NCBI RefSeq assembly: GCF_001644705.1
Contig: NZ_CP015137.1
Span: 2,580,001 to 2,612,000 of the forward strand
DNA length: 32,000 nucleotides
Reading direction: 5' to 3'
Source of the DNA: Dickeya solani IPO 2222
Lineage (GTDB): Bacteria; Pseudomonadota; Gammaproteobacteria; Enterobacterales; Enterobacteriaceae
The stretch's first letter is position 1. Every line of letters starts with the position of its first letter. The position numbers and the translations under genes are program-made. Positions 11,526 to 32,000 of this stretch are shown here, piece after piece. The notes under the pieces are model-generated. The model saw only the letters and a list, made by a program, of their open reading frames with translations. It was not told where the DNA came from and did no database searches.

Positions 11526-11576
11526 TGAAACCGGTTGCAGTGATAATGGCTTTCATGCAGTCTGAAACCGGTTTCA
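11526..11576. promoter_or_regulatory. Two LacI/GalR-family operators flanking a GATAAT -10-like box (AscG-type motif)
   Basis: TGAAACCGGTTGCA lies at 11526-11539, and the perfect 14-bp palindrome TGAAACCGGTTTCA lies at 11563-11576. TGATAAT at 11541-11547 sits between them, about 55 nt upstream of the PTS gene ATG. Confidence 0.6.
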
Positions 11577-11628
11577 GTGGTGGTCGAATCAACGAAGTGG
11601 TTACCGAATATCAACATAAGGTGGCGCC

Positions 11629-13056: not shown

Positions 13057-13074
13057 TATGACTGTGAATATTGA

Positions 13075-14559
<1,485 letters not shown>

Positions 14560-14613
14560 ACCGTGTCAGGATAAGCGTGTGGGCTGATAACGCCGGTTAT
14601 CCGGCCCACTGCT

Positions 14614-14648
14614 GAGCCACATCGTCGTCGGTGTGGCTCATTGTTTTT
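14614..14648 (+). terminator. Rho-independent terminator after the phospho-beta-glucosidase gene
   Basis: GAGCCACA-10 nt loop-TGTGGCTC is followed by ATTGTTTTT. Confidence 0.6.
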
Positions 14649-14653
14649 GCTGC

Positions 14654-15670: not shown

Positions 15671-15702
15671 CGTTGTCTTCTCCATGTGGCTCAACGCTTA
15701 AG

Positions 15703-15741
15703 GTTGAATTAAAATTCACTTTATATGTGTAAATATTCAAA
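15703..15741. promoter_or_regulatory. Tandem ARG boxes (ArgR operator) upstream of argI
   Basis: GTTGAATTAAAATTCACT (15703-15720) matches the 18-bp ARG box wNTGAATwwwwATTCANw at all core positions. After a 3-bp spacer, TATGTGTAAATATTCAAA (15724-15741) matches with two core mismatches. Confidence 0.65.
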
Positions 15742-15831
15742 TTCAAGTGCCGCGTTCAAACTTTCTGGTGGAGAGAGAGGCTAGCCTGTGGGAAAATAAC
15801 CTATCTTTGCCGCTTTGATGAGGACTGAGAC

Positions 15832-16260
15832 ATGGCAAACCGCGAACTGCTGGAAGAACAACGTGAAGAAACCCGCCTGATCATTGAGGAATTGCTGGAG
15901 GACGGCAGCGACCCCGATGCGCTCTACACCATCGAACACCATTTCTCAGCCGAGAAGTTTGAAGATCTGGAAAAAGTGGCGGTGGATGCGTTCAAACTGG
16001 GCTACGAAGTCACCGATGCCGAAGAAATGGAAATGGAAGACGGCATGGTGCTGATGTGCTGCGACGCTATCAGCGAGGTGGCGTTGAACGCTGAGTTGAT
16101 CGATCAGCAGGTGGAACAACTGCTGGCGCTGGCCGAGCGTCATGGCGTCAACTACGACGGCTGGGGCACTTATTTTGAAGACCCGGACGGCGAGGATGAA
16201 GACGAATTTGGGGAAGACGAAGACTTCTATGATGAGGATGACGACGGCAAGCGTCATTGA
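15832..16260 (+). CDS. rraB: Regulator of ribonuclease activity B
   Basis: [40 protein letters not shown] and the acidic C-terminal tail are nearly identical to E. coli RraB. The position next to argI is conserved. Confidence 0.92.
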
Positions 16261-16274
16261 TTCTGGTTTTGTGT

Positions 16275-16307
16275 ATCGCCCGGCAATTGCCGGGCGATGT
16301 GTTTTTA
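16275..16307 (+). terminator. Rho-independent terminator after rraB
   Basis: The perfect 24-nt palindrome ATCGCCCGGCAATTGCCGGGCGAT is followed by GTGTTTTTA. Confidence 0.65.
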
Positions 16308-16334
16308 TGCGGCGCAATGACAGTGCCCGCGTCC

Positions 16335-16847
16335 TTACAGCGTTTTCAGCATCCTGACTTCGCAATCCACATGGCCGGTGCTGCCCATGGCATGCGAGAT
16401 ATGTGCGAAGCCGAGTTTTTCATACAGGTGGATGGCGCTGGTCAGGTGCGCGGTGGTTTCCAGATAGCAACGCCGAAACCCCTGCTCACGGCCAAACGTC
16501 AGCGCCAGTTCCGCCAGTTGGCGGGCGATGCCTTGACCGCGCGCCAGCGGTAGAAAATACATTTTCTGCAATTCGCAGATATCCGACTCGCCGCCGGACA
16601 GCGGAGCCAAACCGCCGCCGCCCACCACTTCGCCATTGCATTCCACCACCCAGTACGCGCTGGCGGGGCGACAATAGAGTTCGAACAACTGGTCCAGGTC
16701 CGGGTCGGACACGGTATACCCCTTGTCGGCCGTCAGGCCGAATTCAGCGGAAACCCGGCGGATCACGTTGGCAATCGCCGCGTTGTCCGCGGCCGTAATC
16801 GGGCGGGTCAGCAGTGGTGTGGACGCTGAAGTTGTCATGTTGCTCAC
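16335..16847 (-). CDS. yjgM: GNAT family N-acetyltransferase, YjgM homolog
   Basis: [53 protein letters not shown] and the C-terminal [13 protein letters not shown] are colinear with E. coli YjgM as I recall it. Synteny with rraB is conserved. Confidence 0.85.
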
Positions 16848-16905
16848 TCTTGTCGGCAGAATCCTGTCAGGTCGAAAACGTCGGCAACCGGCTGGCGTTT
16901 CCCGA

Positions 16906-16948
16906 TGATACGTACTGTCGGTGATACGTACCGCTGATTATACGTACC
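16906..16948. repeat. Three direct copies of T(G/T)ATACGTAC(C/T) at exact 16-bp spacing in the yjgM / XRE-regulator divergent intergenic region
   Basis: The cores are at 16906 (TGATACGTACT), 16922 (TGATACGTACC) and 16938 (TTATACGTACC). Each contains the palindrome TACGTA. The array lies 60-100 nt upstream of the yjgM ATG. Confidence 0.45.
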
Positions 16949-17162
16949 GATGCGCCAGCTCAAAACCCGTTATTGATAAAGGCGCGTAACAAAAAGCGCA
17001 ACCGTGGATGAGCGAAGCGGTAATCGTTCGACCATGACGCGAATCCTGCTGTTAAACGTGCGGCGGAATAACCCGTTCTCACTGCGTTTCACTCTGAACG
17101 TATCTTGATCTATTTTCTCATTTATGAGATTTTTTATCAAAATTGATATTTAAGGCGACGCG

Positions 17163-17768
17163 ATGGAACCTTCCATTTCTGAAACCGAACGTCTTTCTGA
17201 AAACGATCGTCTTTCCGAAACCGATCGTCGGCTGGCCGGGCGGCTGGCGGCGCTGCGCCGTGAGCGAGGTTGGTCGCTGGACGAACTGGCACAGAACAGC
17301 GGCATCAGCCGCGCCACGTTGTCCCGGCTGGAACGCATGGAGTCCAGCCCGACGGCGGCATTGTTGGGCCGTTTGTGCGCGGTGTACGGCTGCACTATGT
17401 CGTGCCTGCTGGCCGAAGTGGAAACCCAACTGCCGCAGAAGTTGAGCGCCGCGCAACAACCGGTATGGATTGATCCGGAAACCGGGTTTGTCCGCCGTAC
17501 GGTTTCCCCCCCTTCAGCCGGTTTTCGCGCCGAAATGATTCACGGCGAGCTGCCGGCCGGCGCGCGTATCGAATACACGGCGCCGCCGCTGGTGGGGTTG
17601 GAGCATCACCTGTATGTGCTGGATGGTCAGTTGGTTATGACGCTGGAAGGCGTGACCCACACGCTCGTCCCGCAGGACAGCCTGCGTTATCGCCTGTATG
17701 GCGCGTCCGGGTTCCATAATCCCGGCCCGGACCCGGTTCGCTACCTGATTGCTATCTGCACCCCTTAA
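17163..17768 (+). CDS. XRE-family HTH transcriptional regulator with a C-terminal cupin domain
   Basis: The HTH segment is LRRERGWSLDELAQNSGISRATLSRLERMESSP. The C-terminal beta-rich part (HHLYVLDGQLVMTLEGVTHTLVPQDSLRY) is typical of cupin sensor domains. Confidence 0.85.
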   Translation: MEPSISETERLSENDRLSETDRRLAGRLAALRRERGWSLDELAQNSGISRATLSRLERMESSPTAALLGRLCAVYGCTMSCLLAEVETQLPQKLSAAQQPVWIDPETGFVRRTVSPPSAGFRAEMIHGELPAGARIEYTAPPLVGLEHHLYVLDGQLVMTLEGVTHTLVPQDSLRYRLYGASGFHNPGPDPVRYLIAICTP

Positions 17769-17792
17769 TCTTTTTTTGCTACGGAGCTGAAG

Positions 17793-18290
17793 ATGGAGCT
17801 GACGATAATGACAAACACATCCCCGCGGGCGCCGCTGGTGATCCGCGAAGACGATCTGAGCGGCGAGGCCACTCGGGCGCTGGTGGCGCTGCATCTGGCG
17901 GGCATGCACGATAATTCACCGCCGGAGCAGGTGTTCGCGCTGGACTTGTCCGGTTTACAGGCGCCGGATATCACGTTCTGGAGCGTCTGGCGCGGTGAGC
18001 AGATCGCCGGTATCGGGGCGCTGAAAATGCTGCCGGACGGCAGCGGAGAACTGAAATCGATGCGTACCCATCCGCAATGTCTGCGTCAGGGCGTGGCCGC
18101 GCGCCTGCTGGTTCATATTCAGGGCGAAGCGCGTCGGCGCGGTTTGCGCCGCCTGAGCCTGGAAACCGGCAGCGGTCCGGCGTTTGAACCGGCGCTGGCG
18201 CTGTATCGTCAGCACGGTTTTGTGAATGGCGAGGCATTCGCTGAGTATACGGCCGGCGAATTCAACCAGTTCCTGCATCTGCCGCTGTAG
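17793..18290 (+). CDS. GNAT family N-acetyltransferase
   Basis: The acetyl-CoA binding region is RQGVAARLLVHIQGEARRRGLRRLSLETG, and LYRQHGF is present. The gene lies 24 nt downstream of the XRE-cupin gene. The start is ambiguous between ATG 17793 and ATG 17808, both preceded by GGAG. Confidence 0.8.
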   Translation: MELTIMTNTSPRAPLVIREDDLSGEATRALVALHLAGMHDNSPPEQVFALDLSGLQAPDITFWSVWRGEQIAGIGALKMLPDGSGELKSMRTHPQCLRQGVAARLLVHIQGEARRRGLRRLSLETGSGPAFEPALALYRQHGFVNGEAFAEYTAGEFNQFLHLPL

Positions 18291-18572
18291 ATAACGGCTC
18301 GGTTTATCTCTTTCATCTCTGCGCACAGGCGACAATATCGGCAACCGGAGGGTAACGGCAGGCTTGCTTTGCGGTTAGCGGCGTATCCCTGAACAGAATC
18401 AGGACACGGATTGTTTCATCGGTATTGTTCAGGACTAAATTATATGCCGCGATAACTAAAATTGGCGGAATATAATTATTTTTTAATGATTAGCCTGCGA
18501 GCATTATTGGGATATTTTACAGGAAACATTAACATCAAGATCCCCCGCCTAAGATTACGGAAGAGTTGTTCT

Positions 18573-19640
18573 ATGGTTAATCGCTTGCTGTCTGGACTGG
18601 CTGGTCTGGTTTTTCTGTTGGTTTTATCTCCTTTGTCGACTGCACAAACGCTACAACCACAAGAAGGAAATTGGGTCGCGCCTGAATTCCGATTCCATAC
18701 CGGAGAAACCGTCAACAATCTCCGTATTCATTATTACACGTTGGGCGACAGTAAAAAGCCGGCCGTATTATTGCTGCACGGCACTAACCAGCCGATCGGC
18801 GCCTTATTGGCTGCCGGTTTTGGCGGCGAATTATTTGGCCCCGGCCAGCCGCTGGATACCAGCAAATATTTCATCATTATTCCTGAAAGCATCGGTTCCG
18901 GAAAATCCGCCAAGCCGTCTGACGGCCTGCGCACTAAATTCCCGCAATATAACTACGATGATATGGTGCTGGCGCAATACCGCCTGCTGACCGAAGGTCT
19001 CGGCATTACGCATCTGCGGTTGGTGATGGGATATTCGATGGGGGGTATGCATACCTGGATGTGGGGCGAAAAATACCCGGACATGATGGATGCGCTGGTG
19101 CCGATGGCGTCGCAGCCGAACGAACTGTCGGGCCGCAACTGGATGCTGCGCCGCATGCTGATTGAAACCATCAAACGCGATCCGGCGTGGAAAAACGGCG
19201 ATTACACCACTCAGCCGCCGTCGCTGCAGACCGCCAACATCATGTTCAGCATTGCCACCACGGGCGGTACGCTGGCCTACCAGAGCAAAGCGCCGACTCG
19301 CGCCCAGGCGGACAAACTGGTGGATGAGCGTCTGGCCGCGCCGGTCACCAGCGATGCCAATGACTTTATTTATATCTGGAATTCCTCAGCGGATTATAAC
19401 GCGTCGCCGGAATTGGCCCGTATCAAGGCGCCGTTGCTGGTGATTAATTCCGCTGACGATGAGCGTAATCCGGTTGAAACAGGAATACTGGAAAGTGAGC
19501 TGAAAAAGGTGAAACACGCCGAACTGTTTTTGATTCCGGCAAGTAAGGAAACCAGCGGCCATGCCACCATGATGTCGGCGAAGTTTTATAAAAATAAACT
19601 GGGTGAGTTTTTGGCGACGACGCCGCCACATAATCAGTAA
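18573..19640 (+). CDS. Secreted alpha/beta-fold hydrolase (homoserine O-acetyltransferase-like esterase family)
   Basis: I chose the start at ATG 18573, after GGAAGAG. The Sec signal is MVNRLLSGLAGLVFLLVLSPLSTA|QT. The nucleophile elbow is GYSMGG, with an acid in INSADDERNP and a His in ETSGHATM. The 37-aa N-terminal extension in the track looks non-coding. Confidence 0.75.
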   Translation: MVNRLLSGLAGLVFLLVLSPLSTAQTLQPQEGNWVAPEFRFHTGETVNNLRIHYYTLGDSKKPAVLLLHGTNQPIGALLAAGFGGELFGPGQPLDTSKYFIIIPESIGSGKSAKPSDGLRTKFPQYNYDDMVLAQYRLLTEGLGITHLRLVMGYSMGGMHTWMWGEKYPDMMDALVPMASQPNELSGRNWMLRRMLIETIKRDPAWKNGDYTTQPPSLQTANIMFSIATTGGTLAYQSKAPTRAQADKLVDERLAAPVTSDANDFIYIWNSSADYNASPELARIKAPLLVINSADDERNPVETGILESELKKVKHAELFLIPASKETSGHATMMSAKFYKNKLGEFLATTPPHNQ

Positions 19641-19795
19641 CGGGAATTAATAATATTGGGCCGGCGGTGGCGACGCAATAATGTCCACACAATAACGTCG
19701 GCCTTTTCCTTTCATGATATTTCCTTTTCATTTTTGTTGCGGTTACGTGTGAGCTGAAGCTCATGGTTTTTCATTACTAAACAACAGGGACAATT

Positions 19796-21415
19796 ATGTT
19801 TCGTAAGATAAAGATCCGCACAACGCTCAGTATTATGGTGTTCTCTCTGGCGGTGCTGTCATTGATGGTGGGCGTCCTGGGGTTGGTGGCCGTCCAGTCG
19901 GGTAATAAATCGTTTGCGCATGTGGATAACGTGGTGTTGCCGGGGCTGGTGGCGCTGAATGAAAGTTCGGAATTGTTATTGCGCGCCCGCCTGGATTTAC
20001 GTTTGTACGAATCCCTGATGGGGAAAGGGGATAAGGATGCCGCCACGGTGGCGCTCAAGCGCGCCAGAGGCAAAATTGATGATGCCGGCAAGAAGTGGCA
20101 GGAGTACCTGACCTATCCGCAATTCGAACAGGAAAAGGTCATTTCTTCCGACATGGCGGCTAAACGCGACACCCTGATGAACGAGTTCATCAACCCGGCG
20201 TTTATTGCGCTGGAAGCCGGCAATCTGGATGACTATCGCCAGCGGGCGGGTAAATCCACCACGCTGTACGCCGATTTTGACGGCGCGGCGAAAAAACTGG
20301 TGCAGTACAAGCGCCAGAGCATTGACGAGGCTTACAGTGACTCAAATGCGCGCGTTAGCCGTATGCAGGTGATCCTGTCGGTGGTGATTGTGTGTGCGCT
20401 GGTGCTGGCGGCGCTGGCCTGGTTTATCCTGACCAATCTGGTGGTGAAACCGCTCAACCAGGCGATTACCGTGTTTGACCGGATTGCTGAAGGCGACCTG
20501 CGCGCCAAAATCGATATTCGCGGCAATAATGAAATCGCCCAGCTGTTTGGCGCGGTGCAACGCATGCGTGATGGGTTGGAAAATATGGTACGGGCGGTGC
20601 GCAACGGCACCGACGCTATCAGCGTCGGCGTTGAGGAGATCGCCTCCGGCAACATTGATTTGTCCAGCCGTACCGAGCAGCAGGCCGCGTCGTTGGATGA
20701 GACCGCCGCCAGTATGGAACAGATTCTGTCGACGGTGGGCAACAACGAAGACAACACCCGCAAGGCGAACGATCTGGCGAAGAAAGCGTCGGACTCAGCC
20801 TCTCGCGGCGGTAACGTGGTGACGGAAGTGGTGGATACCATGCGTTCTATCCAGCAGAGTTCGGCCCGCATTTCCGACATTGTGGGCGTGATCGACGGCA
20901 TCGCCTTTCAGACCAACCTGTTGGCGCTGAACGCGGCGGTGGAAGCCGCACGGGCGGGCGAGCAGGGCAAAGGGTTCGCGGTGGTGGCGTCCGAAGTGCG
21001 TACGCTGGCGCAGCGCAGCGCCACGGCGGCCAAAGAGATCGGCACCATGATCGATAACTCGCTGAGCCGTATAGAAAAAGGCGCCGGGCTGGTGGAAGTG
21101 GCCGGCAAAACAATGGATGAAATCCTGTCGGATGTCCGCAAAGTGGTGGATATCATGGGCGAAATCATGCTGTCTTCCGGCGAGCAGAGCCGGGGTATTT
21201 CGCAGATCAATATCGCCATCAATCAGATGGACGGAGTAACCCAGCAGAACGCCAGCCTGGTGGCGGAGGTGGCGACTGCCGCCAGCTCGCTGCAGGCGCA
21301 GGTAACACATCTGCAGCAGTCGATCGCCAGTTTCCGTCTCGACAGCGAGACGCAGCCGATGCTGACCGGCCGCCTCAATGTGCCGCCGCGCGTGGCGCTG
21401 GTCGGCGTGCAGTAA
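19796..21415 (+). CDS. Methyl-accepting chemotaxis protein (four-helix-bundle periplasmic sensor, HAMP, MA signalling domain)
   Basis: There are two TM segments (residues about 10-33 and 190-212). A HAMP region follows, then the highly conserved signalling hairpin IAFQTNLLALNAAVEAARAGEQGKGFAVVASEVRTLAQRSA. Confidence 0.9.
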   Translation: MFRKIKIRTTLSIMVFSLAVLSLMVGVLGLVAVQSGNKSFAHVDNVVLPGLVALNESSELLLRARLDLRLYESLMGKGDKDAATVALKRARGKIDDAGKKWQEYLTYPQFEQEKVISSDMAAKRDTLMNEFINPAFIALEAGNLDDYRQRAGKSTTLYADFDGAAKKLVQYKRQSIDEAYSDSNARVSRMQVILSVVIVCALVLAALAWFILTNLVVKPLNQAITVFDRIAEGDLRAKIDIRGNNEIAQLFGAVQRMRDGLENMVRAVRNGTDAISVGVEEIASGNIDLSSRTEQQAASLDETAASMEQILSTVGNNEDNTRKANDLAKKASDSASRGGNVVTEVVDTMRSIQQSSARISDIVGVIDGIAFQTNLLALNAAVEAARAGEQGKGFAVVASEVRTLAQRSATAAKEIGTMIDNSLSRIEKGAGLVEVAGKTMDEILSDVRKVVDIMGEIMLSSGEQSRGISQINIAINQMDGVTQQNASLVAEVATAASSLQAQVTHLQQSIASFRLDSETQPMLTGRLNVPPRVALVGVQ

Positions 21416-21448
21416 CCCGCGCTGGCGTTGCATTACCAGCAGTACAAT

Positions 21449-21487
21449 AAAAAGCCCCGCGATGAAAAGCGGGGCTTTTATTTTTTG
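21449..21487. terminator. Bidirectional rho-independent terminator shared by the MCP gene and valS
   Basis: AAAAAGCCCCGC-GATGAAAA-GCGGGGCTTTTATTTTTT has A-runs and T-runs on both sides of an 8-bp GC stem. Confidence 0.7.
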
Positions 21488-21555
21488 TATTTTTCAGACT
21501 AACGTTGCATCAATCAAGGCCGACGCAGCGTTTACTGCGTCAGCCAGTGGCCTGA

Positions 21556-24414
21556 TTACAGCGCGGCGATGGTAGCCTGTTGTTCCAGCAGTTTGGTTTT
21601 GGCGACGGCGTAACCATCACGTTTTTCGCGCTCTTTGGCGACGACCGCTTCCGGCGCGCGCGCGACAAAACCCTCGTTGGACAGCTTGCTATCGATGCGG
21701 CTGATTTCCAGTTCGAGCTTCGCCACTTCTTTTGCCAGACGATCCAGTTCGGCCACTTTATCGATCAGCCCGGCCATCGGGATCAGCAGCTCAGCGCCAT
21801 CCACCAGTTTGGTGACGGATACCGGGCCTTTGTCGCCAGCCGGCAACAGCGTGATGCTCTCCAGACGCGCCAGCGTCTGAATAAAGCCGAGGTTGTCCTG
21901 AACACGGCGGGTGGCATCGGCGGACGCATCGCGCAGCAGCAGCGTCAGCGGCTTGCTGGGTGCGATGTTCATTTCGGCGCGGATGTTGCGCACCGCGACG
22001 ATCGCCTGTTTGATCCACTCCAGATCGTTGAACGCCTGCTCGTCTTCCAGCGTGGCGTCAAAGGCCGGGAACGGCTGCAACATAATGGTGTCGTCAGTCA
22101 CGCCTTTCAGCACTTTCACTCGCTGCCAGATGGTTTCGGTAATGAACGGAATGATCGGGTGCGCCAGACGCAGCAGCGCTTCCAGCACGGTGACCAGCGT
22201 ATGGCGAGTGCCGCGCAGTTCCGCGTCGCTGCCGCCGGTCATCACCGGTTTAGTCAGTTCCAGATACCAGTCGCAGAACTGGTTCCAGGTGAACTCATAC
22301 AGCACGTTGGCGGCCAGATCGAAGCGGTAACCGTCCAGCGCTTCGCGGTAGGTTTTTATCGTGCGGTTGAATTCCGCCAGAATCCAGCGGTCGGCCAACG
22401 ACAGCACTTTTTCCCCGCCGGCAGTAAAGCCGCAGTCTTGATCTTCGGTATTCATCAGCACGAAGCGGCTGGCGTTCCACAACTTGTTGCAGAAGTTGCG
22501 GTAACCTTCCAGGCGTTTCATGTCCCAGTTGATGTCACGGCCGGTAGAAGCCAGCGCCGCCAGCGTAAAGCGCAGCGCGTCGGTACCGTGCGGTTCGATG
22601 CCGTTCGGGAACTGTTTTTCGGTACGCTTGCGGATTTTTTCCGCCAGTTGCGGCTGCATCATGTTGCCGGTGCGTTTTTCCAGCAGCGCTTCCAGCGAAA
22701 TACCGTCCACCATATCCAGCGGGTCAATCACGTTGCCCTTGGATTTGGACATCTTCTGACCTTCCTCATCGCGGATCAGGCCGGTCATGTACACGGTATG
22801 GAACGGCACCTGCGGCTTGCCGTCTTCATCCTTGATGAAGTGCATGGTCAGCATGATCATGCGGGCAATCCAGAAGAAGATGATGTCGAAGCCGCTGACC
22901 ATCACGCTGCTCGGATGGAAGGCTTTCAGCTCCGGCGTCTGCTCCGGCCAACCCAGGGTGGAGAAGGTCCACAGCCCAGAGGAGAACCAGGTGTCCAGCA
23001 CGTCTTCGTCCTGACGCAACGCTACATCGGCGCTCAGGTTGTTGTCGCGGCGCACTTCGGCTTCATCGCGGCCGACATACACCTTGCCGTTGTCGTCGTA
23101 CCACGCCGGAATACGGTGGCCCCACCACAGCTGACGGGAGATACACCAGTCCTGAATGTCGCGCATCCAGCTGAAGTACATGTTTTCGTACTGTCTTGGT
23201 ACGAACTGGATGCGGCCGTCTTCCACCGCTTCGACGGCTGGCTTGGCCAGCACGCCGGCACGGACGTACCACTGGTCGGTCAGCATCGGCTCGATGACTA
23301 CGCCGCCGCGGTCGCCGTAGGGTACGGTCAGGTCGTGCGCTTTGATTTCTTCCAGCAGGCCCAGTTCGTCAAAGGCGGCTACCACCGCTTTACGGGCGGC
23401 AAAACGTTCCAGCCCGCGGAAAGCGTCCGGAATGTCGCTGTTGTAGGCGGTACTGGCTTCACCGTTGGTGCTGAAGACTTCCGCTTCCTGACGGATATCG
23501 CCGTCGAAGGTCAGAATGTTGATCATCGGTAACTGATGACGCTTGCCGACTTCGTAGTCGTTGAAGTCGTGCGCCGGGGTGATCTTCACGCAGCCGGTGC
23601 CTTTTTCCATATCGGCGTGTTCGTCGCCGACGATCGGAATGCGGCGGCCGACCAGCGGCAGGATCAGGAATTTGCCGATCAGATCCTTGTAGCGCGGATC
23701 TTCCGGATTCACCGCCACGCCGGTATCGCCCAGCACAGTTTCCGGACGGGTGGTCGCCACCACCAGATAATCGTTGCCGTCGGCGGTTTTAGCGCCGTCC
23801 GCCAGCGGGTAACGCAGGTGCCACATTGAACCTTTGACGTCGCGATTTTCCACTTCCAGATCGGAAATGGCGGTGCGCAGTTTCGGATCCCAGTTCACCA
23901 GGCGTTTGCCGCGGTAGATCAGGTCTTCTTTATACAGACGAACGAACACTTCTTTAACCGCGTTGGACAAGCCGTCGTCCATGGTGAAGCGCTCGCGATC
24001 CCAGTCTACCGAGTTGCCCAGCCGGCGCATCTGACGGGTGATAGTACCGCCGGATTCCTCCTTCCACTGCCAGATTTTATCGATGAACGCTTCTCGGCCG
24101 TAATCGTGACGGGTTTTACCCTCTTCGGCGGCGATCTTGCGCTCCACTACCATCTGGGTGGCGATACCGGCGTGGTCGGTCCCGGCCTGCCACAGGGTGT
24201 TTTTACCCTGCATACGCTGGTAGCGGATCATCGTGTCCATAATGGTTTGCTGGAAAGCATGACCCATGTGCAGGCTGCCGGTGACGTTGGGCGGCGGGAT
24301 CATGATGCTGAAGCTTTCCTGGCTGGTGTCGCCGTTGGGCTTGAAGTAGCCTTGTTTTTCCCAGTGCTCGTACAGCGGCTGCTCAATGTCGTGCGGGTTG
24401 TATGTCTTTTCCAT
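21556..24414 (-). CDS. valS: Valine--tRNA ligase
   Basis: The protein is colinear with E. coli ValS, with the HIGH-type motif [13 protein letters not shown] and KMSKS. The start at ATG 24414 (MEKTYNP) matches E. coli. The track start at 24423 is a TTG three codons upstream. Confidence 0.97.
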
Positions 24415-24427
24415 TATGCTCAAAAAG

Positions 24428-24877
24428 TCAGTGAGTTGGCGGCGTCGCCGTGGTCAATTGGAAGCCGACGCTGCGATAGGCCTTGTAGCGGTCGCGCGCC
24501 AACTGTTTCAGAGATTCTTCGTAAGGAACGAAGTCTATCACTTCATGGAAAGCGGTGGCAAAATCTGCGAACTGCGGCTGTAGGCTAATCAACAGGTCGC
24601 GCGGCGCGTTGCCGCGCTTCTGCGGCCATGCCAGCTCCACCGGCGCGCCTTGCCGCGGCCCTTCTCCCGCCAGATTATGCGGCACGAATTCGTGAGGTTC
24701 GCGTTGCCACAGCGCCTCGTCCAGCCTTAATGCCTGCTGCTCGTCCTCGCAGGCGATCAGTACCCGCTGACCGGCGCGCCAGCGCGCCGCCGCCAAATCG
24801 CAGGCCAGCGCTTCGCAGGCGTTCAGTTCGCCGCTGAGGCGATCGTGATCAATAAGATAGAAGGTCGCGTTTTTCAT
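24428..24877 (-). CDS. holC: DNA polymerase III chi subunit
   Basis: [12 protein letters not shown]..., [20 protein letters not shown] and [11 protein letters not shown] are colinear with E. coli HolC. The start at ATG 24877 is preceded by GGAG. The gene lies 13 nt upstream of valS, as in E. coli. Confidence 0.93.
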
Positions 24878-24910
24878 GGTGCTCCGCATACCGATGAGGG
24901 CTACAGACAG

Positions 24911-24938
24911 AATAACAAATCCCCGCAAGCGCGGGGAT
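24911..24938 (-). terminator. Rho-independent terminator after pepA
   Basis: The minus strand reads ATCCCCGC-GCTT-GCGGGGAT followed by TTGTTATT. Confidence 0.55.
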
Positions 24939-24991
24939 CAAGCCGGAAGGGGATGAATGCGCCACCGGCCGGCGGTGGCGGTTGCCGATGG

Positions 24992-26683
<1,692 letters not shown>

Positions 26684-26783
26684 TTAGCTACGAAGGTTGC
26701 CACAAATGAGTGTAAATGGCGAGTTAGCGAAAAAACTATCGACTTTCCTGCAAAAATACAAGTTTTCACAGGCGTAATTAAGC

Positions 26784-27902
26784 GTGATCATCATTCGATA
26801 TCTGGTACGGGAAACCTTTAAGAGCCAGGTGGCCATTCTGTTTATCCTGTTGCTGATTTTTTTCTGTCAGAAACTGGTGCGGATACTGGGCGCTGCCGTG
26901 GACGGCGACATCCCAACGAATCTGGTTTTGTCCCTGCTGGGGCTGGGCGTGCCCGCGATGGCGCAGCTGATTCTGCCGTTGAGTCTATTCCTCGGGCTGC
27001 TGATGACCTTCGGGCGGCTCTACGCTGAAAGCGAAATCACCGTAATGCATGCCTGCGGGCTGAGCAAAGGCGTGTTGCTCAAGGCCGCGCTGTTGCTGTC
27101 GCTGTTGACGGCGTCGTTCGCCGCCGCGAACGTGCTGTGGCTGAGCCCCTGGTCGTCGCGCCATCAGGACGAAGTGCTGGCGGAGGCGCGCGCCAACCCA
27201 GGTATGGCGTCGCTGGCGGAAGGGCAGTTCCAGCAGACGCAGGACGGCAACTCGGTGCTGTTCGTTGGCAAGGTGAACGGCGGCGACTTTGAGCGGGTCT
27301 TTCTGGCGCAGTTGCATCCGCGTGAGAACACCCGGCCGTCGGTGGTCGTGGCCGATCGCGGTACGGTCGCGGCGCGCGGCGACGGCTCCCAAGTGGTGAC
27401 GCTCAATAAAGGCACCCGTTACGAAGGGACGGCGATGCTGCGTGATTTCCGTATTACCGATTTTATCAATTATCAGGCCATCGTCGGTTATCAGCCGGTC
27501 GCGGTTGACCCGAGCAATGTCGAACAGATGAGTCTGAAGACGTTGTGGCATTCTTCTGATATTGCCGCCAGAGCCGAGTTCCATTGGCGGTTGACGCTGA
27601 TTCTGTCGGTGCTGGTGATGGCGGTGATGGTGGTGCCGCTGAGTGCGGTCAACCCGCGTCAGGGCCGGGTGCTGAGTATGTTGCCTGCGATGCTGCTGTA
27701 TCTGGTGTTCTTCCTGCTGCAAAGCTCGCTGCGCTCGAACGCCAGCAAGGGCAAGCTCGACCCGATGGTGTGGATGTGGCTGACCAATCTGGCCTATCTT
27801 GCGCTGGCCATCATCCTGAACCTGTGGGACAGCGTGCCGGCGCGCAAGATGCGCGCCAGCCTGAAATCGGGTAATCGCCAGAAAATAAAAGGAGCGGCCT
27901 AA
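26784..27902 (+). CDS. lptF: LPS export ABC transporter permease LptF
   Basis: It has a GTG start. MIIIRYLVRETFKSQVAILFILLLIFFCQKLVRILGAAVDGDIP is nearly identical to E. coli LptF. It is divergent from pepA, as in E. coli. Confidence 0.93.
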   Translation: MIIIRYLVRETFKSQVAILFILLLIFFCQKLVRILGAAVDGDIPTNLVLSLLGLGVPAMAQLILPLSLFLGLLMTFGRLYAESEITVMHACGLSKGVLLKAALLLSLLTASFAAANVLWLSPWSSRHQDEVLAEARANPGMASLAEGQFQQTQDGNSVLFVGKVNGGDFERVFLAQLHPRENTRPSVVVADRGTVAARGDGSQVVTLNKGTRYEGTAMLRDFRITDFINYQAIVGYQPVAVDPSNVEQMSLKTLWHSSDIAARAEFHWRLTLILSVLVMAVMVVPLSAVNPRQGRVLSMLPAMLLYLVFFLLQSSLRSNASKGKLDPMVWMWLTNLAYLALAIILNLWDSVPARKMRASLKSGNRQKIKGAA

Positions 27903-27903
27903 G

Positions 27904-28974
27904 ATGTTTCGCGTACTGGACCGCTATATCGGTAAAACCATTTTCAACACCATCATGATGACGCTGTTCATGTTGGTGTCGCTGTCCGGCATCATCAAGT
28001 TTGTCGATCAACTGCGCAAAGTGGGGCAAGGCAGCTATTCGGTGGCGGGCGCTGGGGTGTATACCCTGCTCAGCGTGCCGAAAGACATTGAGATCTTCTT
28101 CCCGATGGCCGCGCTGCTGGGCGCGCTACTTGGGCTCGGAACGCTGGCCACCCGCAGCGAGCTGGTGGTAATGCAGGCTTCCGGTTTTACCCGGCTGCAG
28201 ATCGCCGGCTCGGTGATGAAAACCGCCATTCCGCTGGTGCTGCTGACCATGGCGATTGGCGAATGGATGGCACCGGCGGGCGAGCAGATGGCTCGCAACT
28301 ACCGTTCTCAGATGATGTACGGCGGTTCGATGTTGTCGACCCAAAGCGGGATGTGGGCCAAAGACGGCAACGACTTTGTCTACATTCAGCGGGTGGCGGG
28401 AGAAAATGAACTGGTTGGCGTCAACATTTATCACTTCGACAAACAAAGCAAGCTGTTGTCGGTTCGTTACGCCGCGTCGGCTGTGTATGAGAATGGCGCC
28501 TGGAAATTGTCTCAGGTTGAAGAGTCCGACCTGCGCGACAGCAAGCAGATTGGCGGCAGCCAGACGGTAAGCGGCGAATGGAAAACCAACCTGACGCCGG
28601 ACAAACTCGGCGTGGTGGCGCTGGAGCCGGATGCGCTGTCGATCCGCGGTTTGTATGACTACATCAACTACCTGCGCCAGAGCGGCCAGGAAGCCAACCG
28701 TTACCTGCTCAACATGTGGAGCAAGTTATTCGCGCCGCTGTCCGTGGCCGTAATGATGCTGATGGCGCTGTCGTTCATCTTCGGCCCGCTACGCAGCGTA
28801 TCGGCGGGTATGCGAATCGTGATCGGCATTAGCTTCGGTTTTCTGTTTTACGTGTTGGATCAGATCTTCGGTCCGCTCAGTATGGTGTACCACATTCCGC
28901 CGATGCTGGGCGCCCTGTTGCCGAGCGCGTTGTTCCTGTTTATCAGCATCATGCTGCTACTGAAACGGCGCTGA
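27904..28974 (+). CDS. lptG: LPS export ABC transporter permease LptG
   Basis: VLDRYIGKTIFNTIMMTLFMLVSLSGIIKFVDQLRKVGQGSY is colinear with E. coli LptG. The start lies 1 nt after the lptF stop. Confidence 0.93.
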   Translation: MFRVLDRYIGKTIFNTIMMTLFMLVSLSGIIKFVDQLRKVGQGSYSVAGAGVYTLLSVPKDIEIFFPMAALLGALLGLGTLATRSELVVMQASGFTRLQIAGSVMKTAIPLVLLTMAIGEWMAPAGEQMARNYRSQMMYGGSMLSTQSGMWAKDGNDFVYIQRVAGENELVGVNIYHFDKQSKLLSVRYAASAVYENGAWKLSQVEESDLRDSKQIGGSQTVSGEWKTNLTPDKLGVVALEPDALSIRGLYDYINYLRQSGQEANRYLLNMWSKLFAPLSVAVMMLMALSFIFGPLRSVSAGMRIVIGISFGFLFYVLDQIFGPLSMVYHIPPMLGALLPSALFLFISIMLLLKRR

Positions 28975-28989
28975 TTCAGCTTTTCCACT

Positions 28990-29021
28990 AAACGGGTGGG
29001 CTGCGGCTCACCCGTTTTTTT
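28990..29021 (+). terminator. Rho-independent terminator after lptG
   Basis: AAACGGGTG-loop-CACCCGTTT is followed by TTTT. Confidence 0.7.
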
Positions 29022-29219
29022 ATCAGCGCTAAACCGCCGCTTTGAACGATGGCGATGACTTGTCTTCCATCATCGTCGGCGTGTTTTTTGATGGGGTGTC
29101 ATTGCTTGCTGGCGTGTGGGACACACCGAAAAAGTGCCGCGATGGCAACGCATGAAAACGACGAAACCTCGACAACGGCGATTTTTTCAGCGCTCGCAAC
29201 GCCATACGACGGATTGGGG

Positions 29220-29247
29220 TTGCACCGGGCCCGCACCACTGTATAAT
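29220..29247 (+). promoter_or_regulatory. Candidate sigma70 promoter of leuX
   Basis: TTGCAC (29220-29225), a 16-nt spacer and a perfect TATAAT (29242-29247) lie 31 nt upstream of the mature tRNA 5' end. Confidence 0.45.
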
Positions 29248-29278
29248 CCACCACGTTTTCCGCAAAGTACTACTTCGT

Positions 29279-29363
29279 GCCGAAGTGGCGAAATCGGTAG
29301 ACGCAGTTGATTCAAAATCAACCGTAGAAATACGTGCCGGTTCGAGTCCGGCCTTCGGCACCA
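29279..29363 (+). tRNA. leuX: tRNA-Leu (anticodon CAA)
   Basis: The 85-nt sequence GCCGAAGTGGCGAAATCGGTAGACGCAGTTGATTCAAAATCAACCGTAGAAATACGTGCCGGTTCGAGTCCGGCCTTCGGCACCA matches E. coli leuX as I recall it. It has a long variable arm, the anticodon loop TTCAAAA and an encoded CCA. Confidence 0.95.
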
Positions 29364-29377
29364 AAATTCAAAAATCA

Positions 29378-29401
29378 AGCCACCTTCGGGTGGCTTTTTT
29401 T
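29378..29401 (+). terminator. Rho-independent terminator after leuX
   Basis: AAGCCACC-TTCG-GGTGGCTT is followed by TTTTT. Confidence 0.65.
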
Positions 29402-29582
29402 GTGTCCGCTATCGTCCGCTGACTTCCATAAATAATTGTTAAATAACGATTTAATCTGATTTTATTGTCTGGGTAGATTGTGCGTTTTTTCCACAGTGGT
29501 CTTTTTACATCCGTTGACATCCAGATTATTTGGGGGTCAAGATAAGGGTCAATTCGCTTCGATTATGAGTTGACCCCCAATT

Positions 29583-30839
29583 ATGGCCCTGACTGACGTT
29601 GTTGCCCGTACCGCTAAGCCCCGCGAGAAAGCCTATAAGCTCGCGGATGCACATGGCCTGTACCTTTTGGTGAGCCCTAACGGTTCTAAGCGCTGGTATC
29701 TCAAATATCGCTTTGAAGGTAAGGAAAGCCGGATTGCATTCGGTGCCTATCCGCTAGTCTCGCTGGCGAAGGCCAGAGAGAAGCGTGATGAGATACGATT
29801 GCTGCTGTTGGAGGGCATCCACCCAACGGAAAAGCGCGAAGAAGAAAAAGAGCAGGCGCAAGAGGCGTTGAATACTTTTGCCAAGGTCGCGCAGGACTGG
29901 CACCGAAACATTAGCCAAAACCGCTGGTCAGAAACGCATGCAGGACGGGTATGGCGCGATATGGAACGAAATTTACTACCTGCTATCGGGCATCGCCATA
30001 TTGCCGACCTGAAAACCAAAGACCTGCTGGAGCCGCTGAAAGTCGTCGAACAAAACGGCCATCTTGATTTAGCGTCACGACTGCGCCAGCGCGTCACCGA
30101 TATTATGCGTTACGCGGTGCAGAATGACCTGATAGAGCGCAACCCCGCGCAAGACCTCTCCGGCGCGATAGCCGCGCCAAAAGCTACCCATCGGCCAGCC
30201 CTGAAGCTGAATAAACTGCCGGATTTTCTGGCACGGATAGAACGCCACAAAGGGCGAGCGTTAACCAAACTGGCCTTAAAACTCACGCTGTGCGTTTTTA
30301 TCCGCTCCAGTGAGCTACGTTTTACCCGCTGGCCGGAAATCGATTTTAAACGTGCCATGTGGACGATACCGGCTGAACGTGAAGCCATTCCCGACGTGAA
30401 GCATTCGCAGCGCGGCGCAAAGATGCGCTCTGAACATCTGGTGCCGTTATCCCGACAGGCTTTAGCGCTGCTGGAAGAGATTAAGGCCATCAGCGGTGCT
30501 CATGAGCTGATTTTCCCCGGCGATCGTCGGCCAACTAAACCGATGAGTGAAAACACCGTCAACAACGCATTACGAACCATGGGCTATGACACCACTACCG
30601 AAGTGTGCGGACACGGCTTCCGCACCATGGCCTGTAGCGCACTGGTGGAGTCCGGCCAGTGGTCGCGGGATGCGGTAGAGCGCCAGATGAGTCATCAGGA
30701 ACGTAATGGCGTTCGTGCTGCCTACATCCACAAAGCGGAGCATCTGGATGAGCGTAGGCTAATGCTGCAATGGTGGGCGGATTATCTGGATGCGAACAGG
30801 GAAGCGTATGTGGTGGCGTATGAGTATAACCCCATTTGA
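29583..30839 (+). CDS. int: P4-like (IntB/IntS/CP4-57 type) tyrosine recombinase/integrase
   Basis: The N-terminal DUF4102-type arm-binding region is LTDVVARTAKPREKAYKLADAHGLYLLVSPNGSKRWYLKYRF. The C-terminal catalytic residues lie in IRSSELRFTRW (R), HGFRTM (H-x-x-R) and RAAYIH (Y). Confidence 0.92.
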   Translation: MALTDVVARTAKPREKAYKLADAHGLYLLVSPNGSKRWYLKYRFEGKESRIAFGAYPLVSLAKAREKRDEIRLLLLEGIHPTEKREEEKEQAQEALNTFAKVAQDWHRNISQNRWSETHAGRVWRDMERNLLPAIGHRHIADLKTKDLLEPLKVVEQNGHLDLASRLRQRVTDIMRYAVQNDLIERNPAQDLSGAIAAPKATHRPALKLNKLPDFLARIERHKGRALTKLALKLTLCVFIRSSELRFTRWPEIDFKRAMWTIPAEREAIPDVKHSQRGAKMRSEHLVPLSRQALALLEEIKAISGAHELIFPGDRRPTKPMSENTVNNALRTMGYDTTTEVCGHGFRTMACSALVESGQWSRDAVERQMSHQERNGVRAAYIHKAEHLDERRLMLQWWADYLDANREAYVVAYEYNPI

Positions 30840-30930
30840 TTGTGTTACCTATCGGGAGGTCTATCATTCCTTGCTGTAGATTAGAATAGAATAATGATAA
30901 ACTGTAAAAAATAATGCATCATGTAACTAT

Positions 30931-32000
30931 ATGAAAATATTGGTAATAAGTGATTTGCATGTTGGAAAAACTGCCCGCGCTAAAGATTTCTGCACTCTGA
31001 GCAGTGACGCTACGTCTGCGATTACAGAGAATTTTATTGAAGATTTCAGAGAATTGGTTCAGTCAGAAAATCTCAGCGCAACACATTTATTAATCGCCGG
31101 TGATATGACGAATAGTGGGGAAATACCTGAATTTGAAATGGCAGCTGAGAGGATACAAGACATAATAAATATTTTGAGTATTGATCTCAAGAACGTTTAT
31201 TTTGTTCCTGGCAATCATGATGGAAATTGGGGGCATGAGAAAGAATCCTCAAAAAGAGGAGATAAGATAGAAAAAACTAGAGAAGCAAAATATCTTAATA
31301 TAAAAAGCAATGATTTTTTTTCGAGTGTTTTAAATAACACAAGTTTTTCTTCATATTATAAGGACCCATTCTCAGCTATTTGGGAAAGTGATAACATTAT
31401 TGTCGTTGGTGTAAACTCTTCAGCATATGATAGCTGTGATAAAGAGGTTAAGTTTGGAGAAGTCGATTTAAAATGCCTTGATGCATTACAGAAGAAGCTT
31501 CTCGAAATGAAAAAAAAGAAAGATAGACGCCTTAAAATTCTACTAACACATCATCATCCAAAAATTTATACGGATAGAACTTTTGCTGATGCAGATTTAA
31601 GTCAAATGAAGAATGCAGAGGACTTCTTACATTTTGCCAGTAAGAATGAGTTTGACTTTATCGTACATGGTCACAAACACATTCCTCGCTTTAACTTTCA
31701 AGTTGATTCAGATGGTTATGCGGTAAATATTCTTAGTGCAGGAAGTTTTAGTGCCCAATTAAAAGATTGGCATAATGGAGTTGCTAATTTTATTCATTTA
31801 ATTGAACATCATGACTTTTGTCCGGAAAATAATTATTCAAGAGGTAGGGTAATATCATGGTCATATTTTACAAATCATAAATGGAAACATTCTCAATATG
31901 ATAGAGATATGATTAACCATGAGGAGTATTTTGGAAGTGTGCTATCTAAAAATAAACTTAAAGCTATCTTGAAAAGAGAAATTTCCGAGTGGAAGGCTAC
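30931..32000 (+). CDS. Calcineurin-like metallophosphoesterase with an additional C-terminal region; 3' end outside the window (not in the supplied ORF track)
   Basis: I translated this by hand from ATG 30931. There is no stop through base 32000 (356 codons). The full MPE motif set is in order: ISDLHVG, AGDMTNSG, PGNHD, LLTHHHP and VHGHKHIP. It is very AT-rich and is the first cargo gene after the integrase. Confidence 0.75.
   Translation, partial: MKILVISDLHVGKTARAKDFCTLSSDATSAITENFIEDFRELVQSENLSATHLLIAGDMTNSGEIPEFEMAAERIQDIINILSIDLKNVYFVPGNHDGNWGHEKESSKRGDKIEKTREAKYLNIKSNDFFSSVLNNTSFSSYYKDPFSAIWESDNIIVVGVNSSAYDSCDKEVKFGEVDLKCLDALQKKLLEMKKKKDRRLKILLTHHHPKIYTDRTFADADLSQMKNAEDFLHFASKNEFDFIVHGHKHIPRFNFQVDSDGYAVNILSAGSFSAQLKDWHNGVANFIHLIEHHDFCPENNYSRGRVISWSYFTNHKWKHSQYDRDMINHEEYFGSVLSKNKLKAILKREISEWKA

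Follow-up and report, generated by a model that had tools for sequence, protein, structure and literature searches.

What has entered the chromosome of the plant pathogen Dickeya solani at the tRNA gene leuX, and what might the AT-rich genes behind the integrase there be doing? The question is raised by a 32,000-nucleotide (nt) stretch of the D. solani IPO 2222 chromosome (NZ_CP015137.1, positions 2,580,001 to 2,612,000, forward strand; hereafter the window), at whose right end leuX is followed by a P4-type integrase gene and by a metallophosphoesterase (MPE) gene that runs past the last base. A sequence-only reading of the window had proposed a leuX-integrated island whose cargo was likely to serve defence or some accessory function. 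We find that the segment is almost certainly a bounded, horizontally spread mobile island at an integration hotspot, and that the MPE gene opens a three-gene operon (the trio), which also encodes an ORC/Cdc6-like ATPase and a CARF6-like protein. Genomic context, domain content, and structure prediction make it quite likely that the trio is a system directed against phages or other mobile elements. The explanation that best covers the locus as a whole, a leuX island carrying the trio as a defence of the abortive-infection type, is probably correct.

An island bounded by leuX and a copy of its 3′ end

The arrangement first described for the right end of the window, a tRNA-Leu(CAA) gene, a spacer of roughly 220 nt, and a P4-type integrase reading away from the tRNA, is borne out by our annotation, in which the spacer measures 219 nt (Table 1). 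leuX is the sole tRNA gene of the window, being called by ARAGORN with the concurrence of Rfam RF00005 (59 bits). The integrase contains the motifs RSSELR, HGFR, and AAYIH, with R241, H344-x-x-R347, and Y381. It scores 264 bits against NCBIfam PRK09692, under the cut-off of 434, is assigned to the integrases by PHROG, and is 94 to 98% identical to leuX integrases of Pectobacterium, Lonsdalea, and Brenneria. An abrupt turn to AT-rich DNA immediately after the integrase, encoding an enzyme outside housekeeping functions, had also been proposed. Indeed, G+C content (GC) is 0.58 in the upstream core genes and 0.55 in int, the core genes and the integrase together spanning 0.54 to 0.58, and falls to 0.31 to 0.35 from about position 30850 to the end of the window. 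The open reading frame (ORF) that begins at position 30931 encodes an MPE of family PF00149.

Two other D. solani chromosomes, here L001 (CP051457.1) and L092 (CP017454.1), carry the locus beyond the window edge. Since L001 showed 0 mismatches against window positions 19583-32000 and L092 showed 0 mismatches against L001 across 16,919 nt, both were used as the continuation of the window, and virtual coordinates are given as L001 + 19582 or L092 + 23920. The window's integrase protein was found in many D. solani assemblies. A direct repeat of the leuX 3′ end, which the sequence-only reading expected further downstream, was located 13.4 kb on (attR in Table 1), such that the island measures 13,403 nt from attL to attR in two assemblies. 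This repeat was invisible to a substitution-only search of four loci (L001-L004) and was found by inspection of L002 and then by an indel-tolerant search. The same leuX-end repeat with one base deleted also lies 3′ of leuX in two Pectobacterium species and one Serratia species, and a perfect tRNA-end repeat precedes an integrase in Serratia sp. PL17 (25 nt by BLAST; at least 22 nt in a second scan). The att repeat thus recurs across genera, which argues for a recurrent att feature and not a chance match. Taken together, the locus has a tRNA gene with an adjoining tyrosine integrase gene, a distal repeat, and absence or difference in relatives along with atypical GC, as expected of a tRNA island.

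Behind attR, a second P4-type integrase gene begins after 186 nt, mirroring the 219-nt spacing at attL, and is followed by a 787-amino-acid (aa) HsdM_N/N6_Mtase gene of the type I-like restriction-modification (R-M) kind. The second integrase is frameshifted after HGFRTMACSS, its C-terminal part with the tyrosine motif lying in another frame (L092 19012-20954, virtual 42932-44874). With an attR and a second integrase behind the first island, leuX holds at least two islands in tandem, of which the second, behind the first, is immobilised.

Two further observations concern such islands. The one-base-deleted copy of the leuX end, CGAGTCCGGCCTTCGCACCA, occurs in L033 and L052 as well as in Serratia inhibens (L058 13849-15610); in S. 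inhibens it lies only 1.7 kb past leuX with no integrase between, and this short segment suggests a minimal remnant island. The D. solani scaffold L002 (GCA_000400565.1), over 11571-20891, contains 13 runs of N (12 of 100 N and 1 single N), mostly in the AT-rich island cargo; true gap sizes, measured for seven of them, range from 4 to 815 nt. The cargo therefore assembles poorly from short reads and could escape draft genomes.

leuX as an integration hotspot across species

The sequence-only reading took leuX to be an integration hotspot, and a comparison across species agrees. The scan was anchored on lptG in one genome per species and covered 80 loci from Pectobacteriaceae, Yersiniaceae, and related families, 62 of which could be evaluated (leuX present with enough downstream sequence). 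The order lptG-leuX is kept in about 70 of the 80 species loci, and leuX itself is 100% identical across Dickeya, Brenneria, and several Pectobacterium loci. A full-length P4-type integrase occupies the site in 32 of the 62 species and an integrase fragment in 8, with none in the remaining 22. The 32 full integrases are 54 to 98% identical to that of D. solani and start 163 to 226 nt past the tRNA (median, 199), and the recurrence of lptG, leuX, and an integrase at this spacing in 32 of 62 loci shows that the layout is no chance pattern. The change in composition is likewise general: from a median of 0.54 in the core genes, GC drops to 0.50 across int and to 0.41 over the following 3 kb, and for 25 of 28 loci the deficit of those 3 kb relative to the core exceeds 0.05. 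The integrases that occupy this leuX site in D. undicola and D. oryzae are different ones (56% identity). Comparison with unoccupied sites therefore places the downstream genes outside the core genome, given that 22 species have no integrase there and others have different islands.

A conserved backbone with exchangeable cargo slots

The same element is present at leuX in Pectobacterium zantedeschiae, Pectobacterium versatile, Pectobacterium jejuense, and Lonsdalea quercina, and in part in Brenneria alni. Its conserved backbone consists of the integrase, a helix-turn-helix (HTH) regulator, a primase-helicase, AlpA, an Integrase_1-family protein, and a RelE/HTH pair. In the Pectobacterium comparison, island DNA is 87 to 92% identical between genera, versus approximately 80% for the flanking core genes, and this greater likeness of island DNA than of core DNA argues for horizontal spread.

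Slot borders were mapped by blastn of L092 against L037, L023, L028, L035, and L012. The slot next to int (left border in Table 1) spans 4.4 kb in D. solani, with a GC of 0.31 and three genes. In the Pectobacterium and Lonsdalea copies it is 1.1 to 1.4 kb long and encodes one of two unrelated multi-pass membrane proteins, and in Brenneria it holds a HipB/HipA-like pair. That a shared backbone carries different genes just after int in other genera again indicates that these genes are not core, the point on which the island interpretation had been said to depend. At the right edge of this slot, a conserved gene on the minus strand (L001 15697-15960, virtual 35279-35542) matches the PADLOC R-M "control protein" profile (E=7e-32) and points toward the slot; its product could regulate whichever cargo occupies it. 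Homology ends a second time past the RelE/HTH pair (virtual ~40240-40297), leaving a slot of 2.5 kb up to attR with a GC of 0.36. This attR-side slot (L092 16709-18180, virtual 40629-42100) contains a gene for a 243-aa Ser/Thr kinase and one for a 247-aa PP2C phosphatase that overlap by 4 nt. The kinase matches several PADLOC PD-T4-6 profiles, at best with E=5e-33 over positions 38-202 of a 292-position profile, as well as mad6 (E=4e-40), and from this resemblance a defence role for the kinase-phosphatase pair is possible. Profile searches also identified toxin-antitoxin pairs.

Intact copies of the backbone in Pectobacterium encode a 678-aa primase-helicase (Zn-ribbon, Toprim, and AAA_25 domains), an Ash-family protein, and a Gp49/HTH pair. 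About 1.5 kb has been deleted from the D. solani island (L001 16807-17885 versus L037 15255-17820), with loss of Ash and truncation of the primase-helicase, which is split into ORFs of 214 and 136 aa; judging by this damage, the island has probably lost the capacity to replicate. Of the P4-like set of int, alpha primase, and AlpA, the island has int and AlpA, and the primase-helicase has its full length in Pectobacterium copies and the damaged form just described in D. solani. Across the 13.4-kb island, no called gene received a Pfam or PHROG assignment to psu, sid, or delta, by a method that does detect Psu in another trio-bearing locus (L098). Without psu, sid, and delta, the element is satellite-like and not a strict P4-like satellite; in terms of its gene content, the backbone is a decayed satellite-type element.

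In D. oryzae (L006 15100-20545), a block comprising Integrase_1, AlpA, AAA_25, p136, HTH_35, and the HTH regulator is inverted relative to leuX and sits about 2.3 kb, at the DNA level, past a different (56%) P4-type integrase. This hints that the backbone block can move or invert by itself, perhaps via the Integrase_1-family gene.

The cargo operon and its predicted products

Most of the cargo had been placed beyond base 32000, and this is where it lies: 356 of the 410 codons of the first gene are in the window, and the operon of MPE, ORC/Cdc6-like ATPase, and CARF6-like genes ends at virtual 34874 in both L001 and L092. The three genes abut or overlap, the ATPase and CARF6-like genes by 11 nt. 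A promoter scan of the gap between int and the MPE gene gave no convincing sigma-70 match; promoter-like matches in the region numbered four, against a mean of 5.4 for shuffled sequence. The trio appears to be pseudogenised in two D. solani assemblies, a reading that we reject. The differences are single-base homopolymer deletions with no substitutions; as they are confined to homopolymers and one also occurs in the essential gene lptF, they are sequencing errors.

The MPE has five motifs (D8-x-H10, G57-D58, G94-N-H-D97, H207-H-H209, and G247-H-x-H250) that are invariant in six homologues at 28 to 70% identity, and a conserved C-terminal domain of about 120 aa with weak wHTH-Calcineurin_assc matches. 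As judged from these features, it is a catalytically intact enzyme of the Calcineurin-CE kind with a C-terminal winged-helix-like domain. Among named families, it is matched best by NCBIfam DS9_1, "anti-phage phosphoesterase" (E=1e-30; 106 bits, with a cut-off of 420; profile positions 196-445 of 486). Its closest PDB sequence relative, and the only PDB sequence match, is Lmo2642, which we take to be a cyclic-nucleotide phosphodiesterase.

The second gene encodes a 588-aa protein that matches Pfam PF24389, "ORC-CDC6-like," end to end (E=6e-98). Its Walker A (GSRGSGKT) and Walker B (C-x-DEAE) motifs are invariant in 47 sequences. A PDB sequence search with the ATPase returned no match; the best matches of its structure model (predicted local distance difference test [pLDDT], 82.5) are ORC subunits, archaeal Cdc6/Orc1, and RADAR RdrA, at probabilities of 0.94 to 0.99 with E values of about 1e-3 and low template modeling (TM) scores.

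The third product, of 316 aa, has no Pfam match and matches PADLOC PDLC01912, "CARF6," over its full length (E=7e-165). In its model (pLDDT, 94.1; predicted TM score, 0.92), each half is predicted to resemble the CARF domains of Csm6, Cam1, Can2, and Csa3 (probability, 1.0; root mean square deviation, 3.5 to 4 Å over approximately 135 residues), and the whole model aligns with the SAVED domain of Cap4. The CARF motif [DN]-x-[ST]-xxx-[RK] is represented by D110-Y-S-S-M-S-R116 and is invariant or nearly so. Against a viral structure library, the CARF6-like model gave generic Rossmann-fold matches only.

The trio as a module in defence-rich contexts

Homologues of the CARF6-like protein (hereafter the sensor) and of the ATPase occur in Serratia, Pectobacterium, Citrobacter, Enterobacter, Klebsiella, Proteus, Yersinia, other Dickeya, Vibrio, Shewanella, Pseudoalteromonas, and Aeromonas, among others. 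With clusters formed at 50% identity, an exhaustive profile search with the sensor retrieved 2,431 representatives having E<=1e-3, of which 350 have E<=1e-30. Nearly all of the top 150 relatives are stand-alone proteins of 300 to 345 aa, the rest being shorter fragments, and no fused effector domain was seen among these 150. In every adequately long locus examined, the order MPE-ATPase-sensor is kept with similar gene sizes and different flanks. Gene ends overlap in the trios of Citrobacter, Vibrio, Enterobacter, Klebsiella, D. fangzhongdai, an Acidobacteriia metagenome-assembled genome (MAG), and those metagenome loci long enough to judge. In Enterobacter hormaechei (L089 3981-5213), the MPE gene is split into ORFs of 148 and 252 aa, which could reflect real inactivation or an assembly error.

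The flanks of the trio include genes for SymE, RhuM, CbtA/CbeA, antirestriction proteins, RadC, VapBC, and ScoMcrA-type HNH endonucleases, together with three adjoining genes for TerB, an ATPase, and a DEAD helicase; in its domain content, this last group may resemble a Shango system. The trio of L098 belongs to a P4-type satellite that encodes alpha primase, AlpA, and Psu. In the IMG/VR contig L099, a P2-type prophage carries the trio, flanked on one side by a gpA-type origin nickase gene and on the other by genes for the portal, terminase, and scaffold, and the P2 gpA-Q position is the old/tin anti-phage hotspot (Rousset et al. 2022, PMC9122126). Two more ORFs (242 and 297 aa) lie within this hotspot between the trio and the portal gene (L099 10662-12280), the longer of which weakly matches a PHROG of unknown function. 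The trio is also found in chromosomal contexts without a visible element. A tblastn search with the ATPase gave no match in 50,697 phage records and 72,556 plasmids, and complete E. coli genomes, searched by blastn with two versions of the trio, likewise gave none at the DNA level. Overall, the trio is a conserved mobile module in defence-rich contexts.

A link to adenine methylation

In divergent loci, a gene for a Dam-family methyltransferase (MTase; PF02086) lies directly 5′ of the MPE gene on the same strand, namely in L090/L091, L101, the Acidobacteriia MAG L102, and probably L100. Where genes were called for such a cassette (L090, L101, and L102), 14 to 92 nt separate the MTase and MPE genes. 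We surveyed 80 metagenome loci, counting contigs with enough upstream sequence and dividing them by the identity of their sensor to the D. solani protein. The MTase gene stands next to the MPE gene in 30 of 35 loci (29 adjacent and 1 partial) with a sensor at most 35% identical to that of D. solani and in 0 of 10 with a sensor at least 42% identical; the D. solani operon has none either. The nearest match of the MTase is DpnM (E=3e-42), which is part of a genuine R-M system, followed by E. coli Dam (4e-26), with T4 Dam much weaker (5e-07).

Proposed function and its rivals

A profile check of the DefenseFinder/PADLOC type, suggested along with the original proposal, returned the CARF6 match (E=7e-165), the PD-T4-6 match (E=5e-33), the toxin-antitoxin pairs, and the adjacent type I methylase gene. 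The earlier expectation of defence or accessory cargo is thereby supported, with the word "defence" resting on context, domain content, and structure prediction. The island entered the 3′ end of leuX by means of its P4-type tyrosine integrase. For the trio, we propose the following mechanism, of the abortive-infection type. During infection, the tandem-CARF protein would bind an adenine-containing nucleotide or oligonucleotide made at that time, possibly an N6-methyladenine (m6A) product of degraded Dam-methylated DNA. The ORC/Cdc6-like ATPase would then serve as an oligomeric or DNA-bound switch, and the MPE would be the effector, hydrolysing (deoxy)nucleotides or nucleic acid. This division of labour between a sensor of a nucleotide-type ligand, an ATPase switch, and an MPE effector is offered tentatively, the m6A-derived ligand being its most specific version. 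Still more conjectural, and on balance doubtful, is the broader proposal that the trio, ancestrally a four-gene cassette with a Dam/DpnM-type MTase, represents a new cyclase-less form of nucleotide-sensing immunity, in which a CARF/SAVED protein would read a methylome-derived m6A danger signal and trigger a Calcineurin-CE MPE via an ORC-like AAA+ assembly. Under that proposal, the cassette's own MTase would have been dropped in Dam-positive Gammaproteobacteria because the host supplies the mark.

Several findings weigh against these proposals. No cyclase (CD-NTase or Cas10) is encoded in the operon, the island, or 12 annotated neighbourhoods. PADLOC does not define the trio as a system, and the ATPase matches no PADLOC model. 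The MPE scores far under the DS-9 cut-off. For the two winged-helix-type domains, a restriction-like mechanism aimed at DNA would be at least as good an explanation as nucleotide depletion. The division of loci by MTase presence (Fisher's test, p ~1e-6) was counted on loci that are not phylogenetically independent, and GATC specificity, as in DpnM, E. coli Dam, and T4 Dam, is assigned to the MTase with its closest solved relatives as the sole basis. A chromosomal Dam in the named hosts of the MTase-less clade is assumed from the orders to which they belong. Finally, the present-day mobility of the island is doubtful because its replication gene is truncated.

The main rival is a restriction-like mechanism, in which the trio would be the restriction half of an R-M-like system and N6-adenine methylation of GATC, by the cassette MTase or by host Dam in Enterobacterales and Vibrionales, would mark self. 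The ATPase, with its winged helix, would load onto un- or undermethylated DNA such as that of a fast-replicating phage, the MPE, a member of the Mre11/SbcD superfamily, would cut it, and the CARF-like protein would only modulate the response. The MTase gene in the same operon 5′ of the MPE gene in 30 of 35 divergent loci speaks for this explanation, as do the membership of DpnM, the closest solved relative, in an R-M system and the absence of the MTase solely from the clade whose named hosts, as we assume, have a chromosomal Dam. The superfamily of the MPE includes the SbcD and Mre11 nucleases, with a weak SbcD match here, and both the weak wHTH-Calcineurin_assc match and the ORC/Cdc6 fold point to DNA binding. 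However, the named enzyme to which the MPE is most closely related hydrolyses nucleotides (dADP to dAMP) and is not a nuclease, and the conserved CARF ligand motif has no obvious role in plain R-M. Moreover, phages from Dam-positive hosts would already be methylated, which would limit the benefit where the trio occupies anti-phage hotspots. We consider a restriction-like mechanism unlikely, if the strongest of the alternatives.

Counter-defence or element maintenance is less likely than restriction. Here the trio would serve the mobile element itself, either as a CARF sponge with an MPE that degrades the signals of type III CRISPR and of the cyclic-oligonucleotide-based antiphage signaling system (CBASS) or as an ORC-like replication or maintenance module. 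The relationship of the MPE to Lmo2642, its closest solved sequence relative and presumably a cyclic-nucleotide phosphodiesterase, would suit such a role, as would the lack of a cyclase in the trio, its carriage by satellites, prophages, and islands, and the fact that ORC/Cdc6 proteins are replication initiators in archaea and eukaryotes. Yet the carriers have replication genes of their own (gpA or primase-helicase), the trio also occurs on chromosomes without a visible element and in none of the phage and plasmid records searched, the viral structure matches of the CARF6-like model are generic Rossmann folds only, and a large ATPase and a linked Dam-type MTase would be unexpected for a signal sponge; this explanation is very improbable. 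Scarcely tenable is the idea that there is neither island nor hotspot and that the AT-rich genes are vertically inherited, lineage-specific Dickeya genes beside a tRNA and an old integrase remnant. D. solani is clonal, with the same arrangement in all of its assemblies examined, and the replication gene of the island has decayed, as such inheritance would allow. Against it, an att repeat bounds the segment, the integrase appears intact, GC is 0.31 versus 0.58, the island is 87 to 92% identical between genera in contrast to about 80% for the core, and the same site has a different integrase (56%) in D. undicola and D. oryzae and no integrase in 22 species. Abortive-infection defence by the trio, carried on a leuX island, thus remains the explanation that we favour.

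Coordinates and other features of the window

Positions of the features at and around the island are collected in Table 1. The core genes 5′ of the island are pepA, lptF, and lptG. A full-length match to the Yersinia antisense small-RNA family Ysr276 (RF02850, 182 bits) was found at window positions 25751-25942 (+), antisense within the pepA coding sequence; given this location, it may merely reflect conservation of pepA.

Table 1. Features of the leuX locus of D. solani IPO 2222 (window positions; virtual positions lie past the window edge)
Feature	Position	Strand	Remarks
lptF	26784-27902	+	Core gene, left flank of island; Pfam LptF_LptG in product
lptG	27904-28974	+	Core gene, left flank of island; Pfam LptF_LptG in product
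Terminator-like hairpin 3′ of lptG	28990-29017	+	12-bp stem, then T run
leuX, tRNA-Leu(CAA)	29279-29363	+	Integration target
attL core CGAGTCCGGCCTTCGGCACCA	29343-29363		Last 21 nt of leuX
leuX-int spacer	29364-29582	+	219 nt; presumed attL arm and int promoter region
Bidirectional terminator-like hairpin	29377-29396		Within spacer
P4-type tyrosine integrase gene (int)	29583-30839	+	418 aa, apparently intact; Pfam Arm-DNA-bind_3, Phage_int_M, Phage_integrase, full profile coverage
Left border of int-proximal slot	30829-30841		Homology ends at int stop codon and restarts at virtual 35216-35236
AT-rich intergenic region 5′ of cargo operon	30840-30930	+	91 nt
MPE gene	30931-32000 (virtual 30931-32163)	+	410 aa, 356 codons in window; PF00149, E=3e-18; ATG at 30931
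attR CGAGTCCGGCCTTCG-CACCA	Virtual 42726-42745 (L092 18806-18825)		20-nt copy of leuX 3′ end, one base deleted

Significance and comparison with known systems

In itself the island is a textbook case, of use mainly because it shows so cleanly, in plant-pathogenic Pectobacteriaceae, how cargo can be swapped into the slots of a conserved mobile backbone at leuX. The trio is widespread, sits in proven anti-phage hotspots, and joins three domain families tied to immunity, with no signal-making enzyme and with a link to GATC-type adenine methylation. That complete E. coli genomes gave no match would go some way toward explaining why screens centred on E. coli missed it. If the trio is a defence system, CARF/SAVED sensing would reach beyond cyclase-made messengers, and the trio would add to PUA-Cal-HAD a second, independent example of immunity that draws on the host methylome. 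Such a system would also be relevant to phage therapy and biocontrol of D. solani, where resident defence limits phage host range.

Our literature search found no description of the trio (MPE, ORC/Cdc6-like ATPase, and CARF6-like protein); the CARF classification of Makarova 2020, from which the profile name CARF6 probably derives, lay outside this search. Prior cataloguing is likely because Pfam PF24389, PADLOC CARF6, and the NCBI "ORC-CDC6 family AAA ATPase" already exist. What the trio presents is known immune domain families in a combination for which we found no description.

As in other leuX and P4-type tRNA islands, insertion is at the tRNA 3′ end, the integrase points away, a repeat of the tRNA end lies distally, low-GC variable cargo occupies fixed slots of a conserved element, and islands have accreted in tandem. 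Unlike P4-like satellites, the D. solani backbone is without psu, sid, and delta, has an extra Integrase_1-family gene, a truncated primase-helicase, and no Ash. The likeness to P4- and P2-type hotspots (PMC9122126) lies in the trio itself, which in L099 occupies the gpA-Q hotspot of a P2-type prophage and in L098 lies on a P4-type satellite, with the difference that the host of the island is the plant pathogen Dickeya and not E. coli. At the other end of the island, the attR-side 243-aa kinase matches PD-T4-6 profiles but falls short of most models in length, and its gene shows translational coupling to a PP2C gene, which PD-T4-6 lacks.

With regard to the trio, the CARF6-like protein is predicted to share its fold with the sensors of type III CRISPR and CBASS (Csm6, Cam1, Can2, Csa3, and Cap4), as seen in the match to CARF domains that bind cyclic tetra- or hexa-adenylate (cA4/cA6), the D-x-S-xxx-R motif, and the PADLOC CARF6 assignment. 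In contrast to those systems, the D. solani sensor stands alone, with no Cas10 or CD-NTase in the operon or island and no CRISPR context. RADAR, too, is a compact defence operon in which a large AAA+ ATPase of ORC/Cdc6-STAND relationship stands beside a separate enzyme that modifies nucleotides, and RdrA is matched at a probability of 0.94 to 0.97. The structural match is weak, however (E ~1e-3; TM, 0.2 to 0.25), the trio has no adenosine deaminase (RdrB), and RADAR has neither a CARF-like third component nor a linked methylase. A cognate MTase, by which an R-M system is recognised, is missing from the D. solani operon.

The closest parallels are with PUA-Cal-HAD and DS-9 (DefensePredictor; PMC12871103, PMC13092281). 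DS-9 is an experimentally validated defence system that needs the catalytic residues of its MPE (PMC13092281). The PUA-Calcineurin-CE-HAD system senses m6-dAMP from degraded Dam-methylated DNA and depletes deoxynucleoside triphosphates, its Calcineurin-CE component turning dADP into dAMP (PMC12871103). The D. solani MPE differs from DS-9 in lacking the N-terminal PUA sensor (profile positions 1-195 are unmatched) and in scoring 106 bits where the cut-off is 420, and the trio differs from PUA-Cal-HAD in having a PF24389 ATPase and a CARF6-like protein as partners in place of a HAD phosphatase. The likeness lies in the MPE catalytic domain, whose nearest named family is the validated DS-9A/PUA-Cal-HAD phosphoesterase, and in a multi-protein, cyclase-less organisation. 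There is a genomic hint that it extends to adenine methylation: PUA-Cal-HAD depends for its function on N6-adenine methylation by Dam, genes for N6-adenine methylases accompany related Calcineurin modules (PMC12871103), and the trio has its own genomic link to an MTase in 30 of 35 divergent loci.

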